From assembly GCA_016192915.1 (NCBI GenBank), contig JACPTF010000007.1, forward strand, positions 38,623 to 102,622: a DNA stretch of 64,000 bases, written 5' to 3'. Positions 7,541 to 64,000 of the stretch are shown in pieces (position 1 is the first letter of the stretch; the number at the start of each line of letters is the position of its first letter). The position numbers were made by a program, and so were the translations under genes. This DNA is from Candidatus Woesearchaeota archaeon. Its GTDB lineage: Archaea > Nanobdellota > Nanobdellia > Woesearchaeales > UBA10216. The notes under the pieces were generated by a model. The model ran no database searches, was not told where the DNA came from, and saw only the letters and a list, made by a program, of their open reading frames with translations.

Positions 7541-7570
7541 GTTGATAAGGGAGCGTAGAGCTCCCTTATT
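7541..7570 (+). repeat. tRNA leader hairpin GTTGATAAGGGA-loop-TCCCTTATT
   Basis: Stem ATAAGGGA/TCCCTTAT abuts tRNA position +1. The same motif precedes tRNA-Thr and tRNA-Ser(UGA). Confidence 0.7.
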
Positions 7571-7740: not shown

Positions 7741-7791
7741 CCCAAATCGAGAGCTCTCGATTGGGCCCAGTCGTCTTGCAGACGACTTGGG
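7741..7791 (+). repeat. twin-hairpin element copy A (51 nt)
   Basis: CCCAAATCGagagctctCGATTGGG CCCAGTCGtcttgcagaCGACTTGGG, in the trailer of tRNA-Ser(CGA). Confidence 0.85.
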
Positions 7792-9953: not shown

Positions 9954-10092
9954 CCCAAGTCGGCTTGCGCCGCAAATCGGCAGCAGCCGATTGCGCATTC
10001 CGCCTTGCGGAATTGCGACTGGGCCCAGTCGAGTTAGCTTCGTTTTAGAGACGAAGAATGTCGCCTCGCCGGCGACATATGCTCGACTTGGG
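9954..10092 (+). repeat. expanded/nested twin-hairpin element (139 nt)
   Basis: CCCAAGTCG...CGACTGGG encloses two hairpins. It is immediately followed by CCCAGTCGAG...CTCGACTTGGG enclosing two more. Sits in the 3' trailer of tRNA-Val. Confidence 0.7.
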
Positions 10093-10099
10093 GGTTGAG

Positions 10100-10263
10100 T
10101 GGGCTCGCCCAGACATCCTCACTGGCGTTCGGGGCACAAATCGCTGATGCGATTGTGCCCAGTCGGTTTTTCACCGACTTGGGCATTGCCGCCGGGCGCC
10201 AATATTCGAACTGGGGACATCTTCCACGTCAAGGAAGCATCATAACCACTAGATCACGAGCCC
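10100..10263 (-). tRNA. tRNA-Val (anticodon GAC) with 91-nt T-loop intron
   Basis: Minus strand: GGGCTCG...CTTCC-TTGACGT-GGAAG, ATGTC, CCCAG-TTCGAA | intron 10204..10114 | T-CTGGG-CGAGCCC-A. Confidence 0.75.
10135..10183 (+). repeat. twin-hairpin element copy B (49 nt), core of the tRNA-Val intron
   Basis: CACAAATCGctgatgCGATTGTG CCCAGTCGgtttttcacCGACTTGGG. Confidence 0.8.
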
Positions 10264-11410: not shown

Positions 11411-11494
11411 TCTTATCGCCCCAGCACAATCTCCAAAACCTGTGCATAATATCCCGTGGAAGCAACTGGCATCCTGTTGCTGTTGCCAAAGAAA

Positions 11495-11541
11495 CCCAAA
11501 TCGCAGCAGCCGATTGCGCCCAGTCGCAGTAGCGACTTGGG
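11495..11541 (+). repeat. twin-hairpin element copy D (47 nt, first hairpin degenerate), free-standing
   Basis: CCCAAATCGcagcagcCGATTGCG CCCAGTCGcagtagCGACTTGGG. No tRNA nearby. Confidence 0.75.
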
Positions 11542-11685
11542 AAACGTAAAACTATTCGACTAATGCCCCTGTAGGCTTATAATCATAAATAACTTTGGGT
11601 TATAATTTATAAACATTATAAAAGAAGCTGATTTTATAAAAAGGCTCGGAATCTATTTAGTCCTTTGCTACGGAATTCACAATCC

Positions 11686-12327: not shown

Positions 12328-12456
12328 AGCCTCTGCGGGGACTTGCACCCCGGACCTCGTCCTGATTGGTCAACCGTTTTTGGTTGAGCTTTTGTTCGCC
12401 CACAGGCGAATAAAAGATCATACCAAGGACGCGCGCTACTGCTGCGCCACAGAGGC
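12328..12456 (-). tRNA. tRNA-Thr (anticodon GGU) with canonical 57-nt intron
   Basis: GCCTCTG-TG-GCGC-AGCAGTA-GCGC-G-CGTCC-TTGGTA | intron 12420..12364 | A-GGACG-AGGTC-CGGGG-TGCAAGT-CCCCG-CAGAGGC-T. Abuts the PPIase stop codon. Confidence 0.75.
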
Positions 12457-12492
12457 ATAAGGGCACTCACTTCGTTCGCGCCCTTATCAACC
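12457..12492 (-). repeat. tRNA leader hairpin GGTTGATAAGGGC-loop-GCCCTTAT
   Basis: Immediately 5' of tRNA-Thr on the minus strand. Confidence 0.7.
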
Positions 12493-13157: not shown

Positions 13158-13289
13158 TGCGGGGGAAGGGATTTGAACCCTTGAAGGGACTAACCCACAG
13201 GATGTCCTCCGGCAGATTTTCTGCCTGGCTTAAGTCTCGCAGACGATTTTTCGTCTCCTGCGCATTTAGCCGGGCTTTGCTACCCCCGC
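13158..13289 (-). tRNA. tRNA-Leu (probable anticodon UAA) with two introns flanking the anticodon
   Basis: GCGGGGG-TA-GCA-(13-nt loop)-TGC-G-CAGGA | 21 nt 13255..13235 | CTTAAG | 25 nt 13228..13204 | A-TCCTG, long variable arm, AAGGG-TTCAAAT-CCCTT-CCCCCGC-A. Confidence 0.6.
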
Positions 13290-13290
13290 G

Positions 13291-13370
13291 TGTGACCCCT
13301 TTGCGAAAGCGGTCAATCGGAACCCAAATCGCTGCTGCGATTGGGCCCAGTCGACGCAAGTCGACTTGGG
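13291..13370 (+). repeat. composite element: GTGACCC..GGTCAATC hairpin + twin-hairpin copy E
   Basis: tgtgacccctttgcgaaagcggtcaatcgg, then CCCAAATCGctgctgCGATTGGG CCCAGTCGacgcaagtCGACTTGGG. Lies in the 5' flank of tRNA-Leu, antisense to it. Confidence 0.8.
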
Positions 13371-28367: not shown

Positions 28368-28443
28368 TGTGACCTTTTTGCGAAACCACGTCGTGCAAGC
28401 ACGACGGGTCCCATCGCCATAGGCGATGTGGAAAGGTCAATCA
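28368..28443 (+). repeat. nested hairpin element (GTGACC..GGTCAATC stem enclosing a diverged twin hairpin)
   Basis: tgtgaccttt...aaaggtcaatca encloses CCACGTCGtgcaagcaCGACGGGT CCCATCGccataggCGATGTGG (28386-28431). Confidence 0.65.
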
Positions 28444-34412: not shown

Positions 34413-34497
34413 GCCGCGGTGGCGAAACCAGGTAGCCGCGCCCGCCTCTCAAGCGGGTGACCCACAAGTCATACGGGTTCAACTCCCGTCCGCGGCG
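34413..34497 (+). tRNA. class-II (Ser-like) tRNA with anticodon CUC
   Basis: GCCGCGG-TG-GCG-(12)-CGC-G-CCCGC-CTCTCAA-GCGGG-TGACCCACAAGTCAT-ACGGG-TTCAACT-CCCGT-CCGCGGC-G. The acceptor stem and G73 are identical to tRNA-Ser(UGA). Confidence 0.6.
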
Positions 34498-34559: not shown

Positions 34560-34805
34560 GGGCCGGTAGTTAAACCTGGTAAAGGGTTACTGTTAGCGCT
34601 CTCCAGAGTAACGCGCCGCTGGCCGCGGTGTGACCCTTTTTAGAAAAGGGTCAATCAAACCCAAATCGTGCCGTGCACGATTGGGCCCAGTCGGCTAAAG
34701 CCGACTTGGGAACCGTAAAGGCTTCGGGTTCAAACAGCCCTTTTGTTCGCCACTGCTCACAAAAGCGCTGGCGGAAAAACGGGCCTGAAAGTCCCGACCG
34801 GTCCA
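34560..34805 (+). tRNA. tRNA-Ala (anticodon GGC) with three non-canonical introns
   Basis: GGGCCGG/CCGGTCC acceptor with G3:U70 and A73. D arm GTTA-AACCTGGTA | ~27 nt | TAAC. Anticodon arm CGCCG-CTGGCCG-CGGTG. Variable-region intron ~34631-34718. T arm TCGGG-TTCAAA | 34735-34791 | T-CCCGA. Confidence 0.6.
34629..34710 (+). repeat. composite element (GTGACCC..GGTCAATC hairpin + twin-hairpin copy F) forming the tRNA-Ala variable-region intron
   Basis: tgtgaccctttttagaaaagggtcaatcaaa, then CCCAAATCGtgccgtgcaCGATTGGG CCCAGTCGgctaaagcCGACTTGGG. Confidence 0.8.
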
Positions 34806-37749: not shown

Positions 37750-37889
37750 CGCCGCGGCAGGGACTTTCAACACTCGTTGAAAGCTACGAGCTCTCAGCGA
37801 GTTTGTTTGAACCCCGAAGCCCTTGCGGGCACCAGTTTGCTTTTCTGCAAGTTCAAGACTGGCGCACTACCAGGTTATGCGACCGCGGC
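37750..37889 (-). tRNA. tRNA-Ser (anticodon UGA) with two introns
   Basis: GCCGCGG-TC-GCAT-AACCTGGTA-GTGC-G-CCAGT-CTTGAA | 14 nt 37851..37838 | A-ACTGG-TGCCCGCAAGGGCTT-CGGGG-TTCAAA | 42 nt 37805..37764 | T-CCCTG-CCGCGGC-G. Confidence 0.75.
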
Positions 37890-38070
37890 AATAAGGGCAG
37901 TGCCTGCCCTTATCAACCCTCGCACTACGACGAAGGCAATAAGGGCAGTGCCTGCCCTTATCAACCCTCGCACTACGACGAAGGCAATAAGGGCACTCCC
38001 TTCGGTCGCGCCCCTATCACCCCTGCGCCGGCGATGATAGAGCACTCGCAAAGCTCGCTCCCTTATCAAC
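37888..38070 (-). repeat. 48-nt tandem repeat (2 perfect units + degenerate units) of the leader hairpin upstream of tRNA-Ser(UGA)
   Basis: Units at 37888-37935 and 37936-37983 are identical. The third diverges after 13 nt. A further GATAAGGGAG...CCCTTATCAACC-like unit ends at ~38070. Confidence 0.85.
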
Positions 38071-38144
38071 CCCACGGCGATTAAGAAGTTGTTATTTAAA
38101 CTTAATTGTTATAGCAGCAGAAGTTTTTGGCTTTACCAGCATCA

Positions 38145-54380: not shown

Positions 54381-54519
54381 CCCTTACACCCCCGATTTTT
54401 TATTCAATCGTTTTTGTTTTCTTCCCGCCGCGAACTTATGCTTTTCCCGACGAGAGATTTCTATCCTACGCATACTTCTATTTAAATCTTGCTATTTCTG
54501 CGACGAGAGGGCAGGCCTT

Positions 54520-59812: not shown

Positions 59813-60214
59813 TTAGTACGGCGCCTTTACCTTCAGGTTTTGTATCCTTGCATAATCAGAAATGTTCCTTGTACAAAGCACAGCATTTACCTGCAATGCG
59901 GTTGCGGCTATTATGGCATCTACAATCGACAAGCCATACACTCTTCTCAGCGCACCGCCTCTCCTTGCTAATTCGTTGGTTACCAATACCTTTTTGCCAA
60001 TCGATAAAAAGGCAATAGCCTTCTCCTCGTTTTCCTTGTCCTCACAAGCTTTTCCGGCTAAAATTTCGGCCTCTGTAAGTGCGGAGTAATAAAGCTTAAA
60101 CTTGTCGCTTTTCACAACGGCATCGAACCATTCTGTTGATTTTTTAAAATCTCGGAGGTTGTCAATAAACAGGTCTGTATCTATTACAATTGAGATTGGT
60201 TCCTCCTGTTTCAT
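59813..60214 (-). CDS. vapC: PIN-domain ribonuclease (VapC-like toxin)
   Basis: IVIDTDLFIDNLR... 4-nt overlap with the AbrB-type gene. Confidence 0.65.
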   Translation of the reverse strand: MKQEEPISIVIDTDLFIDNLRDFKKSTEWFDAVVKSDKFKLYYSALTEAEILAGKACEDKENEEKAIAFLSIGKKVLVTNELARRGGALRRVYGLSIVDAIIAATALQVNAVLCTRNISDYARIQNLKVKAPY

Positions 60215-60468
60215 ATGCCAAGCCTCTTCGCCCTTTTCGCATACTCGGCCCTCATTTCCCTCACGTACTTAACCGAGTCCTCAACACTTTTCCAAGTGCC
60301 GGCTGCAGCTTTAACGACGTCTTCTTCAAACTTCTTAATAACCAGCCCCTCCTCTTTTGTGCTCGCCAACAGAACATCCCCCACCTTAATGTTAAAAAGC
60401 TTTCTCGAGTCCTTCGGCAAGGTTACCTGGTAGTTCCTTGTCACCTTCATCATTCCCATACTAATCAC
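60211..60468 (-). CDS. AbrB/SpoVT-type antitoxin
   Basis: MKVTRNYQVTLPKDSRKLFNIKVGDVLL. Confidence 0.6.
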   Translation of the reverse strand: MISMGMMKVTRNYQVTLPKDSRKLFNIKVGDVLLASTKEEGLVIKKFEEDVVKAAAGTWKSVEDSVKYVREMRAEYAKRAKRLGI

Positions 60469-60739
60469 CTTCTCTTCTCATCTTAACTAAATCAACCTAG
60501 TAATATTCTGTTAGAAAGGTTAGTAAACTTATATTTAAACTTTTCTATCAAGCTCACCTTGAAAACACCAATCAGCTGCTCACAAGCCAAACCAAAAACA
60601 ATCCGCTCCCTATACCGCAACTCCTGAGGTATCTCGTAAGGCAGTGTAATCACCAATGAACTTTTTAATAATTGAGAATGGACGAAAAACTAGGGCAAAA
60701 AGTCACTTTGCGATTGTGAAGTGATAGGCTTCGAATTCT

Positions 60740-61327
60740 TCATGGCGCTTCGCGCTGCAGCCTTTTCATTAGCTTCGTTCCTTTGCGTACGATGCGCACG
60801 CTGTGCACTAGGCCATAGGCTGCTCCGATTATAAACCCGCCTGCCTGATGCAAGAGAAGCTCAACGCTCATGCCGATAACGATGGTGTAAAAAAGGGCTA
60901 ACGTCACAATCGCAGCCAGCCTGTGCTGCTCGTAGTCTCTCAGCGTCGCGACGTTATCAAGCACCTGGGCCACCCGATGGTCACGCGCTTGTGTCACGCG
61001 CCCGCCGCCTTTTACAAAATAGAAACCCCTAATGAGGACATTCGCTATTGCTTCATGCCCCACGCCTGCAGCAGCACCGATAGCAGCTCCATCCAGCGGC
61101 GACCCCAAGAAGAGCCCCGCAATTCCCCCTGCACCGCACCCAAGCATGGCCTCTGCCATGCAATCCAGCATTTGACCCTTGGCCCTGTCCTTCCCATACG
61201 ATGGCGATGCCGCAATCCTTTGCGCGTATTGCTCTGCCTGCTTTTGCAAGCGTGCAGGCAGTTGCCTGCCTTGCCCAACCTTTATCAAGGGAAGTTTGGC
61301 AATCGTAGTAAAAGAAAACATGGACAT
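60740..61327 (-). CDS. hypothetical Gly-rich membrane protein
   Basis: ATG at 61327, 10 nt after the ileS stop. GCGAGGIAGLFLGSPLDGAAIGAAAGVG. Confidence 0.4.
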   Translation of the reverse strand: MSMFSFTTIAKLPLIKVGQGRQLPARLQKQAEQYAQRIAASPSYGKDRAKGQMLDCMAEAMLGCGAGGIAGLFLGSPLDGAAIGAAAGVGHEAIANVLIRGFYFVKGGGRVTQARDHRVAQVLDNVATLRDYEQHRLAAIVTLALFYTIVIGMSVELLLHQAGGFIIGAAYGLVHSVRIVRKGTKLMKRLQREAP

Positions 61328-61337
61328 TTTGCTCTCA

Positions 61338-64000
61338 TCAATAATCCAGGAATATCTCCACATTCTGCCCTTTTATTCTGGCGACTGCTTCGCTGCCAAA
61401 CGTTCCCTGCTGAGGCCTTGTTTCGGCTACGTCAAGCTTGAAAGCGCCAACCTTTGACTTTACTTCAGCAGCGCTTTCCACCAGAGCGCTTTTCAGCAGC
61501 TGCAGCTGCTCAGGAACAACCACGCTCACTGCAATAACCTGCTCCCTAGTCAGGCCAGCAGTCTTCCTTGCCTGCTGGATGTGCCTTACCAGTTCCCTAA
61601 CGTAGCCCTCTGCCTCCATCTCCTCTGTGGTGTCGGTATCAACATAAAGGCTGCCATACGCCGACTCAGCAACTGCAAAGTTTGCCGGAACTTCCATCTC
61701 TGTTATGAGGTGGTCTTTCGTTATTGAAATCATCTGGCCGTCAATGTCAAGCTTAAAGCTACCGTCCTTCTCAATGTGGCTCAGTATTCCAGAAGTGCCG
61801 TGCATGGCAAGGTTGGCTATTATTTTCGGAGTCAGGCTGCCGAAAACAGGGCCAAGCTTGTTATAATCAGCCTTAACCCTCATCCTGGCTTCCTTGAACT
61901 CATCAGAGAGGGTGAGCTCCTTCACATTGCTCTGCCTCTTGATTATTTCAGCAAGGGCCCTCACAGACTGCTTAGTATTTTCGTCTTTGGTGGCCACTGA
62001 AACCCTCTTAACAGGCCACCTAAGGCCGCGCTGAATCTTGTCCCTTGCAGAAAGAACTGATTCAACTATGCTTCTTGCAACAGCCATCTGGCTTTCAAGA
62101 AGCGAGTCAACAGCCTCCGGCTTGGGCCAGTCGGCAAGGTGAACGCTCACGGGCTCCCAAGTCGCTTTGCTGCGACTGGGCCCAATCGTGTCGGACACGA
62201 TTCGGGTCTCCCTAACGATAAGCTGGTAGATTTCCTCAGTCACGTAAGGAGCAAAAGGAGCCAGCAGCTTAACCAACCGTGAAATCACATAGCGCAGGGT
62301 GTACTGCAGGGCATCGTCAGGCTCAGCTGCCCTCCCCCTAATCAGGCGAATATACCACCTTGAAAAGTCATCCGTGACAAGCCCCTTAAGCTCATGCACG
62401 CAGACATGGTACTCATGCTGGGACAATGCACGGTCAACAGCGGCAGCAACCGAATTGGTTCGGGAGATAATCCACTTGTCTTCTATTTTAAGCGAAGCGT
62501 CCTTCACTACTGCCTGCTTGCTGATGACTTCAGAAGCGAAATAGCAGCTGTTCCACAGGGTAGTAAGGAATGGCAGAACATTCTCGCTGACAATGTTGTA
62601 GCTAAAGCGCTTTGCAGCTTCAGGCGAGGTGCTGCAGAACTGAAGGCGGACAGCATCAACGCCGACTTTGTCAAAAATCTCCCACGGATTCAGGACATTG
62701 CCCTTGCTCTTGCTCATCTTGTCTCCGTGCTCATCCACAACATGGCCTGCGCAGACAACGCTCTTGTAAGCAAAATCATCAAAAAGTAGTGTCCCTAGGA
62801 CGTGCAAGGTGTAGAACCAGCCACGAGTCTGGTCAATGGCCTCTGCTATGAAATCGTATGGGAAATGTTTTGCAAATAATTCGCTGCTGCCTTTGCCAAA
62901 CGGGTAGTGGAACTGCGCAAAGGCTGCAGCGCCTGAATCATACCAGCAGTCGATAACGTACGGCACTCTGGACATTGTTCCATTGCAGCTGCCGCATTTC
63001 AGCTTTACTTCGTCAATAAAAGGCTTGTGAAGGTCAATTTCAACGTTTTTAGGCAAATCAGCGGCTTTTTCTTTCAGCTCCTTAACGCTGCCAATTGCCA
63101 CTTCGCCCCTACAGCCGCCGTTGTCGAGGGTTGATAAGGGCGCAGCAGTGCCCTTATTGTCGCACCTCCAAATCGGCAGGGGAGTCCCCCAGAACTTGTT
63201 CCTGCTCAGGGCCCAGTCCTTGACGTTTGCGAGCCAGTCGCCAAACCGGCCGTGCTTAATGTGCTCGGGGAACCAGGCAATTTTTTCATTAAGCTCAAGC
63301 AAGCGCTCCTTATACCTGCTGACAGCAATAAACCATGACTTAAGCGCGTAATAAATAAGCGGGCTCGAGCATCGCCAGCAAAAAGGATAGGTGTGTGTGT
63401 AGTCCTTTTTGCTGAACAAAGCACCGTCCTTTTCAAGGCGCTCAATAATCATGGGATCAGCATCCTTGACAAAAATGCCGGCATAGTCCTCAACGTCCTT
63501 GGTGAATTTCCCGTCTTCGCCAACAGGCTGGATAAAAGGCAGGCCATGCTTCTTGCAGTTCTCGTAATCCTCCTCGCCAAATGCCGGAGCTTGATGAACA
63601 ATACCGGTGCCTTCCTCTGTTGTAACAAAATCGGCCAAAGTGACAAACCACGCTGGCCTGTCAAGCTTGCCAACAAAGCAGTCAAACAAGGGCACATACT
63701 CCTTTCCCAGAAGCTCGCTGCCAGCCATCTTTTGCACAATGACCGGGTTGGTGAAATATTTTGCTGCCAAATCGTTGGCAAGGATAAACTGCTTGCCAGG
63801 ATATGCGCTGTCCTCAACAATAGCATAAGTTATGCCAGGGTGAACAGCAAGCGCAACATTGCCTGGAATAGTCCAGGGAGTGGTTGTCCACGCCAGAAAA
63901 AACCTGCCCGGGTTTTCCTTAAGCTGGAACGCAGTCGTTATGGCAGGCTCAGCTATCTCATCATAGCCCAAAGCAACCTCGTGGCTGCTTAGCGGAGTCT
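61338..64000 (-). CDS. ileS: isoleucyl-tRNA synthetase (N-terminus beyond window end)
   Basis: KMSKSKGNV, CP1 editing region, conserved SVHLADWP. The ORF stays open to the window edge. Confidence 0.95.
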   Translation of the reverse strand, partial: TPLSSHEVALGYDEIAEPAITTAFQLKENPGRFFLAWTTTPWTIPGNVALAVHPGITYAIVEDSAYPGKQFILANDLAAKYFTNPVIVQKMAGSELLGKEYVPLFDCFVGKLDRPAWFVTLADFVTTEEGTGIVHQAPAFGEEDYENCKKHGLPFIQPVGEDGKFTKDVEDYAGIFVKDADPMIIERLEKDGALFSKKDYTHTYPFCWRCSSPLIYYALKSWFIAVSRYKERLLELNEKIAWFPEHIKHGRFGDWLANVKDWALSRNKFWGTPLPIWRCDNKGTAAPLSTLDNGGCRGEVAIGSVKELKEKAADLPKNVEIDLHKPFIDEVKLKCGSCNGTMSRVPYVIDCWYDSGAAAFAQFHYPFGKGSSELFAKHFPYDFIAEAIDQTRGWFYTLHVLGTLLFDDFAYKSVVCAGHVVDEHGDKMSKSKGNVLNPWEIFDKVGVDAVRLQFCSTSPEAAKRFSYNIVSENVLPFLTTLWNSCYFASEVISKQAVVKDASLKIEDKWIISRTNSVAAAVDRALSQHEYHVCVHELKGLVTDDFSRWYIRLIRGRAAEPDDALQYTLRYVISRLVKLLAPFAPYVTEEIYQLIVRETRIVSDTIGPSRSKATWEPVSVHLADWPKPEAVDSLLESQMAVARSIVESVLSARDKIQRGLRWPVKRVSVATKDENTKQSVRALAEIIKRQSNVKELTLSDEFKEARMRVKADYNKLGPVFGSLTPKIIANLAMHGTSGILSHIEKDGSFKLDIDGQMISITKDHLITEMEVPANFAVAESAYGSLYVDTDTTEEMEAEGYVRELVRHIQQARKTAGLTREQVIAVSVVVPEQLQLLKSALVESAAEVKSKVGAFKLDVAETRPQQGTFGSEAVARIKGQNVEIFLDY
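62156..62206 (-). repeat. twin-hairpin element copy G (51 nt) inside the ileS reading frame
   Basis: Sense strand: CCCGAATCGtgtccgacaCGATTGGG CCCAGTCGcagcaaagCGACTTGGG. Translated in frame across RIVSDTIGPSRSKATW. Confidence 0.85.

Follow-up and report, generated by a model that had tools for sequence, protein, structure and literature searches.

How a short structured repeat comes to lie in frame inside an essential gene, and whether it is translated with that gene or removed from its transcript, is the question raised by the isoleucyl-tRNA synthetase gene (ileS) of a Candidatus Woesearchaeota archaeon. The window analysed here is the whole 64,000-nt stretch of DNA from assembly GCA_016192915.1 (contig JACPTF010000007.1, positions 38,623–102,622 of the forward strand). 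In this window, ileS (61338–64000, minus strand) runs off the window end, with an open reading frame (ORF) at 61338–63971; its product, IleRS, has a best match of 89% identity, for which the sources give the name isoleucine--tRNA ligase [Candidatus Woesearchaeota archaeon]. On the same strand, positions 62156–62206 hold a 51-nt in-frame twin hairpin, hereafter named T. An earlier note on this DNA had placed the repeat correctly, in both sequence and coordinates, and had offered two explanations: a tolerated, translated insertion similar to a miniature inverted-repeat transposable element (MITE), or a segment removed from the RNA by the tRNA splicing endonuclease, as in the cbf5 gene. We consider it likely that T in ileS is a tolerated and translated insertion of a mobile structured repeat, comparable to the Rickettsia palindromic elements (RPEs).

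Read on the coding strand from 62206 to 62156, the ileS copy is CCCGAATCGTGTCCGACACGATTGGG|CCCAGTCGCAGCAAAGCGACTTGGG, which folds into two adjacent hairpins. Hairpin 1 (62181–62206, minus strand) has the structure CCC-G(bulge)-AATCGTG / loop TCCGA / CACGATT-GGG, and hairpin 2 (62156–62180, minus strand) has the structure CCC-AGTCGC / loop AGCAAA / GCGACT-T(bulge)-GGG. Each consists of a 3-bp CCC/GGG base, one bulged base, a conserved 5-bp stem, a few variable pairs and a short loop. Since T begins at codon position 2, an ancestral GAG-AAG-CCN (E-K-P) turns into E-TRIVSDTIGPSRSKATWE-P. The net effect on IleRS is the addition of 17 aa, encoded as TRIVSDTIGPSRSKATW(E), with no stop codon, which bears out the 17 open codons counted in the earlier note. 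The T-encoded peptides IVSDTIGPSR and ATWEPVSVHLADWPK are predicted from the filled gene, and the junction peptide ...IVREKPVSVHLADWPK together with EKPVSVHLADWPK would be expected from ileS without the 51 nt.

The insertion is confined to a narrow lineage. An alignment of the kind that the earlier note had proposed contains no segment corresponding to T in any of 120 IleRS homologues. The closest of these, P0001 (89% amino acid identity), is encoded by L001, a contig of the Woesearchaeota metagenome-assembled genome (MAG) GCA_016188155.1, and reads IVRE-KPVSIHLSDWP at this site. With T removed in silico, the window protein becomes IVREKPVSVHLADWP, and P0001 has IVREKPVSIHLSDWP. L001 is syntenic with the window, with 88–89% nucleotide identity in the flanks, and the alignment of the two at ileS contains a single clean 51-nt gap, the empty site being GGGAGA|AGCC and the filled site GGGAGA[T]AGCC. 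The borders of T have only a 1-nt (A) ambiguity, and the comparison of the filled window site with the empty L001 site reveals no target-site duplication. An assembly artefact was rejected as the source of the insert, which is an exact, intact family member in a continuous ORF. An intein or other protein splicing was also rejected, as 17 aa is the wrong size.

The insertion site corresponds to the loop that joins the last helix of the anticodon-binding domain to the SVH motif. The length of this loop varies among homologues, and the human and yeast cytoplasmic IleRS have roughly 10–14 extra residues at the same place. The 17 additional residues are hydrophilic and Gly-Pro-centred. An AlphaFold2 model of the C-terminal 427 aa of the window IleRS has a mean predicted local distance difference test (pLDDT) score of 90.8; the insert (model residues 139–155) is modelled as a helix extension plus coil with pLDDT of 53–70, and the regions flanking it exceed 90. 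According to the model and the loop lengths of homologues, the insert is located in a flexible, variable surface loop compatible with the fold. Related insertions are found elsewhere in IleRS proteins. In P0010, an IleRS with a full-length ORF, a T-type peptide (PKSTGADWSHSEQRLGG) occupies another loop, and the substitutions in this peptide, judged from the protein alone, are irreconcilable with intact stems. A further IleRS, P0006, contains a peptide of the type encoded by the B-family hairpin described below.

T is a repeat well beyond chance expectation, as the earlier note had assumed. Its 16-nt core CGATTGGGCCCAGTCG, searched with up to three mismatches, is present at 7 sites of the window, where 0.25 would be expected from shuffles. 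An exact-pattern scan of 185,579 species genomes yielded 45 loci and a metagenome scan yielded a further 19, bringing the census to 76 copies, 68 of them with distinct sequence. The family members are 46–52 nt in length, the 7 window copies being 47–51 nt long apart from one expanded copy. All of them share the plan CCCAAATCG-tip-CGATTGGGCCCAGTCG-tip-CGACTTGGG, in which the arms (34 nt) are almost invariant and the tips are variable yet self-complementary. The terminal 9 nt on each side, CCCAAATCG and CGACTTGGG, are reverse complements with one mismatch, and the whole element is quasi-palindromic. Nearly all tips are distinct (54 and 46 versions among the 68 copies). The first, outermost tip pair is nevertheless Watson–Crick in 63/68 copies for hairpin 1 and in 68/68 for hairpin 2, compared with about 25–28 expected in shuffles, and all four pair types are in use. 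The basal CCC/GGG at times covaries to CAC/GTG or CGC/GCG. This tip covariation indicates that hairpin formation by T is a selected or mechanistically imposed property.

All 76 copies, from genomes and metagenomes alike, lie on Woesearchaeota-type contigs, and none was found in a viral collection. Rfam contained neither a matching family nor a ribozyme, both when the whole window was searched at gathering thresholds and when the T element was searched at E up to 10. Most of the 45 species-genome loci are labelled Candidatus Woesearchaeota; five are labelled ‘uncultured Methanosarcinales’. Two MAGs bearing the latter label (CAZBFZ and CAYUOQ; L002, L010, L016, L023, L036 and L043) encode T together with Woesearchaeota-like genes, so their labels or bins are probably wrong.

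Nine copies of T were found inside conserved genes. All of them are 48 or 51 nt in length, free of stop codons and frame-preserving. Homology searches confirmed four of the host genes, namely those of IleRS, ProRS, PurL and the CCA-adding enzyme; the other five were named by reading their sequences only and comprise a glycosyltransferase-like, a DAC-domain-like (diadenylate cyclase) and a DHH-like gene, a gene of a putative PAP2 membrane protein and one further ORF. For PurL and the CCA-adding enzyme, the inserted segments have no counterpart in solved homologues. Among the non-coding copies, 34 of the 60 distinct ones (57%) have a length divisible by three. The difference in frame preservation between coding and non-coding copies gives a Fisher p of 0.016, calculated with eight coding copies, or about 0.004 when the absence of stop codons is added. 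A repeat removed from the mRNA would need neither a length divisible by three nor freedom from stops, and the constraint on the coding copies therefore favours read-through. The coding copies occupy three phases, eight of them in sense orientation and one antisense to its gene. No copy whose deletion would repair a broken frame was found among those examined.

Several observations indicate that T moves as DNA. The L012 locus carries T where the window (54412–54442) and L001 are empty, and one MAG has two identical copies of an 84-nt composite in which T lies in the loop of a B hairpin, the first copy within ProRS and the second at an unrelated non-coding locus. The insertion sites are A-rich, typically RAA|T|A, are often located in loops of other hairpins and lack duplications; no fixed tetranucleotide next to T was detected among the flanks. 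We infer that T has spread by DNA transposition. By analogy with REP/RAYT (REP, repetitive extragenic palindrome) and IS200/IS605 systems, a hairpin-based architecture without target-site duplication would fit a single-strand activity of the HUH/Y1 type or a similar one. Scanned against Pfam, 10 ORFs adjacent to T copies gave transporters, a cyclophilin and DUF192, and no transposase. A Y1 candidate, given by one weak tblastn match to approximate IS608/IS200 TnpA queries, was rejected, as it lies within a 607-aa surface-protein-like ORF. The search for an autonomous element bracketed by a lone hairpin 1 and a lone hairpin 2 returned only diverged or expanded copies.

The events at ileS can be pictured as follows. 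A lineage-specific, DNA-mobile T would have inserted between the two A’s of GAGA|AGCC after the split from the closest sequenced relative. It would have been tolerated owing to a length that is a multiple of three, arms that are stop-free in the frames used and a landing place where the anticodon-binding helical domain ends in a surface loop able to accommodate added residues. Given these three properties, the ileS mRNA would be read straight through, yielding IleRS with 17 extra residues. Of the tolerated, translated MITE-like insertion put forward in the earlier note, the first two attributes stand, in view of the empty site of the relative, the preserved frame and the variable loop. The comparison with MITEs holds only loosely: T has terminal inverted repeats, but it lacks a target-site duplication, no partner transposase was found in the DNA sampled, and its arms are conserved far beyond those of a decaying MITE.

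Copies of T also occur in tRNA genes of the window. The tRNA-Ala(GGC) gene (34560–34805, 246 nt) was missed by both ARAGORN and Rfam when these were run unaided. A purpose-written bulge-helix-bulge (BHB) scanner, run iteratively with ARAGORN, produces a canonical tRNA from it after the removal of three predicted introns: 27 nt in the D-loop (relaxed HBh'), 88 nt after the anticodon stem (34631–34718) and 57 nt in the T-loop, the last of which holds a nested 33-nt BHB intron at 34747–34779. A 51-nt copy of T (34660–34710, plus strand) lies in the 88-nt intron, and the splice motif, a GCGG/CCGT helix, is outside it. Similarly, tRNA-Val(GAC) (10100–10263, minus strand) is recovered by removing one predicted 93-nt T-loop intron (10113–10205). 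This intron contains a 49-nt T copy with the CAC/GTG basal variant (10135–10183, plus strand, antisense to the tRNA), again with the splice helices outside T; orthologous copies are found in L022, L038 and L062. The earlier note had described T as the core of these two introns. It is indeed present in both, but it forms only part of the 88- and 93-nt introns, and the predicted splice motifs do not belong to it.

A number of facts weigh against plain tolerance and translation. Read-through of T in ileS is something that we infer, and the frame statistic behind it is based on just 8–9 coding copies, gathered by an exact arm pattern. The sense bias of the coding copies (8:1, p about 0.04) differs from the 6:5 ratio of non-coding copies between co-directional genes, and stop content does not account for it. 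Replication strand was dropped as a cause of orientation: most genes of the window and six non-coding T copies share the plus strand, but the ratio of non-coding copies relative to neighbouring genes across loci is 6:5. No transposase for T was found in the 437 kb sampled (the window and 65 loci; sampled DNA rather than whole genomes). The arms of T are far better conserved than neutral DNA even within genes, and they remain near-invariant across genomes whose IleRS differ by 11–30%. This invariance is partly a matter of ascertainment and is inflated by the exact-pattern scans, yet it is present too in the seven unselected window copies. In addition, the 47-nt T copy at 11495–11541 (plus strand) differs from its L032 orthologue at 1 of 47 positions (98% identity), whereas the flanking genes are about 72% identical. 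Such conservation points to a structure, in RNA or DNA, that is still being selected or recognised, and mere tolerance does not explain this. Finally, the tRNA-Leu(CAG) gene of L010 (L010 42–178) contains a 50-nt T copy alone, after nucleotide 14 in the D-loop. Exact deletion of T gives a canonical tRNA, and the scanner detected nothing convincing by way of a BHB at or around the T ends. Either the gene has been inactivated, or T by itself can be cut out of it; were this tRNA functional, an activity able to remove T precisely would be required.

Removal of T from the ileS mRNA at a BHB by the archaeal tRNA splicing endonuclease, followed by exon ligation as for cbf5 in Crenarchaeota, appears very improbable to us. 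It would agree with the orthologue-like IleRS restored by exact T removal and with the presence of T in tRNA introns. The tRNA genes are moreover rich in non-canonical and nested BHB introns, including the relaxed HBh' form, so a broad-specificity endonuclease is probably present (for the EndA types of DPANN archaea, see PMC5829648). Nevertheless, an exhaustive listing of the cut pairs lying within 4 nt of each end of the ileS element contained neither a canonical nor a relaxed BHB, in line with the earlier failure to draw a clean motif at these borders. No candidate with a perfect central helix exceeds 2 flanking bp, those with 4 flanking bp contain one helix mismatch, and the segments that the best candidates would excise are not 51 nt long. 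The tRNA-Ala gene served as a positive control, in which the scanner recovers all three introns with splice sites outside T, and spliced inserts have no need of the divisible length and stop-free sequence that every coding copy possesses. The splice-motif scan, the frame statistics, the position in the protein and the other IleRS genes together favour translation through the insert.

Removal or skipping might also proceed without a BHB, either through a dedicated excision that recognises the twin hairpin in both tRNA and mRNA or through ribosome bypass as in T4 gene 60 and the mitochondrial ‘byp’ elements. The lone T of the L010 tRNA-Leu(CAG) gene, the invariant arms and covarying hairpins of every copy, coding ones included, and the sense bias would suit such a route, as would the GAG codons on both sides of the ileS insert. 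However, neither process requires the constraint on frame and length. For bypass, there is no stop after the take-off site, and a hop from GAG to GAG would pass over 54 nt, at the cost of the conserved Lys. The T-derived segment of P0010, with its apparently broken stems, remains in an intact ORF, the L010 tRNA gene may simply be inactivated, and Rfam offered no ribozyme or other family. We regard this route, too, as highly unlikely. A bolder form of it, in which T is a new archaeal mobile RNA/DNA module served by a putative dedicated activity that excises it precisely from transcripts without a BHB, is to our mind a long shot. If true, it would account for the lone tRNA-Leu copy, the near-invariant arms within genes and the sense bias; ileS would then contain a new class of mRNA intron, and the hairpin families T, B and D would be the raw material of the odd tRNA introns of this lineage. 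Another possibility, unlikely but somewhat less so, is that T is a host-selected structured module rather than a selfish one, for instance a site for an RNA- or DNA-binding protein, the ileS copy being translated and acting in addition as an mRNA cis-element. The near-invariance of the arms between species, the close similarity of the 11495 copy to its L032 orthologue within a conserved 165-nt non-coding block, and the retention of orthologous tRNA-Val intron copies in several genomes can be cited in its favour. On the other hand, the presence/absence polymorphism at ileS and at 54412–54442, the identical composite duplicated in one MAG and the insertions into unrelated loops of unrelated genes are the behaviour of mobile DNA, and part of the arm invariance is due to the search pattern. 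Tolerated translation remains our preferred explanation for ileS; the conservation, the lone tRNA-Leu copy and the sense bias keep open an RNA-level or protein-binding role for T.

Among known systems, the RPEs of Rickettsia are the most similar: they are palindromic repeats found in frame in many unrelated genes (PMC10969869). Like them, T is a dispersed palindrome that lies in frame in unrelated conserved genes (IleRS, ProRS, PurL and the CCA-adding enzyme), is missing from orthologues or solved homologues (IleRS, PurL and the CCA-adding enzyme), encodes a short fold-compatible peptide, at a variable surface position in ileS according to the homologue lengths and AlphaFold2, and has non-coding copies as well. 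RPEs, however, are bacterial, are about 100–150 bp in length and give a conserved peptide from a single frame. T is archaeal (DPANN) and, at 46–52 nt, three times smaller; its tandem hairpins combine invariant arms with covarying tips that are hypervariable, its copies occur in each of the three phases and in either orientation, and it is also found within tRNA introns. By this comparison, T would be an analogue of RPEs and not a homologue, set apart by its size and architecture.

T also shares features with REP, BIME and REPIN sequences and with the IS200/IS605-derived PATEs, all of which are short imperfect palindromes, often paired, that lack target-site duplications and have the hairpin as their unit. 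BIMEs are mosaic combinations of different hairpin modules, and the mosaics formed by T with B and D recall them. In contrast to REPs, T has no GTAG-type tetranucleotide, and the 437 kb yielded neither a RAYT nor a Y1 transposase; the definition of REPs confines them to extragenic DNA, and conservation of the T arms extends between species, beyond a single genome. Archaeal BHB introns, such as those of cbf5 and of Thermoproteales tRNAs, resemble T in being small inserts in archaeal genes whose related sequences recur at different tRNA positions, and a DNA-level gain has been proposed for the transposing tRNA introns of Thermoproteales (PMC4090602). These introns are defined by a BHB at the exon–intron junctions and are free of constraints on length and frame; T has no such motif at its ends, is constrained in its coding copies and is mere cargo in the larger tRNA-Ala and tRNA-Val introns. 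Bypass elements are, like T, hairpin-bearing mobile coding inserts of about 50 nt that stay in the mRNA. They differ in having lengths not divisible by three, stop codons and matched take-off and landing codons, whereas the genic T copies have lengths divisible by three and no stops.

The ileS gene contains a second insert, absent from the earlier note. It is a D-family hairpin (CAATAAGGGC-loop-GCCCTTATCAACCCTCG; core 63125–63159, minus strand) that adds a net 36 nt relative to L001. The insert is in frame and encodes KGTAAPLSTLDN between two Cys of the zinc knuckle; its borders are ambiguous by a few nucleotides. Other D copies, mostly beside tRNA-like sequence, are located at 7543–7568, 12455–12489, 37889–37915, 37937–37963, 37985–38019 and 38036–38071. 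B-family hairpins (GACCC-TTTTTAG-AAAAGGGTCAATC) were found at 34632–34656, 28371–28442 and 13297–13322 and in L002, L006, L017 and L046. B is often composite with T, which lies in the B loop or just 3' of B, and such composites are in frame in an apparent ProRS, in PurL and in a diadenylate-cyclase-like protein. In tRNA-Ala(GGC), the 5' cut of the intron coincides with the 5' end of B.

The remaining window copies of T are non-coding and on the plus strand. A 51-nt copy (7741–7791) lies 85 nt downstream of tRNA-Ser(CGA), and a 48-nt copy (13323–13370), preceded by a B-type hairpin, lies 34 nt upstream of a minus-strand tRNA (13158–13289), as the earlier note had recorded for tRNA flanks. The expanded copy (9954–10092) has further nested structured inserts in both hairpin tips. 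The copy at 11495–11541 belongs to the 165-nt intergenic block at 11478–11642, which also contains A/T-rich promoter-like boxes and is, by eye, highly conserved with L032, the flanking genes being about 70–75% identical; this block might encode a small RNA or be a regulatory region under strong constraint. A class-II tRNA of 87 nt, in which the variable arm is long, is located at 34413–34497, and its acceptor and D arm match those of the L010 tRNA-Leu(CAG). Its anticodon loop, CTCTCAA, corresponds to the anticodon CUC, and ARAGORN calls it Glu; the assignment may be wrong, or the tRNA may have an unusual identity. The block 59813–61363, which separates ileS from its neighbour, comprises a PIN-domain toxin/AbrB-type antitoxin-like pair, named from ORF reading, and a 207-aa ORF without a Pfam match. 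The block is absent from the syntenic L001 and is therefore likely a recent insertion.

The hosts of T are DPANN archaea with very small genomes, belonging to a groundwater group of Woesearchaeota. No earlier description was found in the literature searched, and as far as we have checked, the ‘selfish DNA in protein-coding genes’ of Rickettsia had no clear counterpart in archaea before T. That the arms are invariant although the tips covary freely suggests a putative protein partner. The presence of two different in-frame hairpin repeats in one essential gene, together with repeats at other loops in the IleRS of relatives, indicates that these repeats are an active source of protein-length variation. 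As the same modules form parts of non-canonical tRNA introns, they provide a testable system for the DNA-level gain of archaeal tRNA introns.

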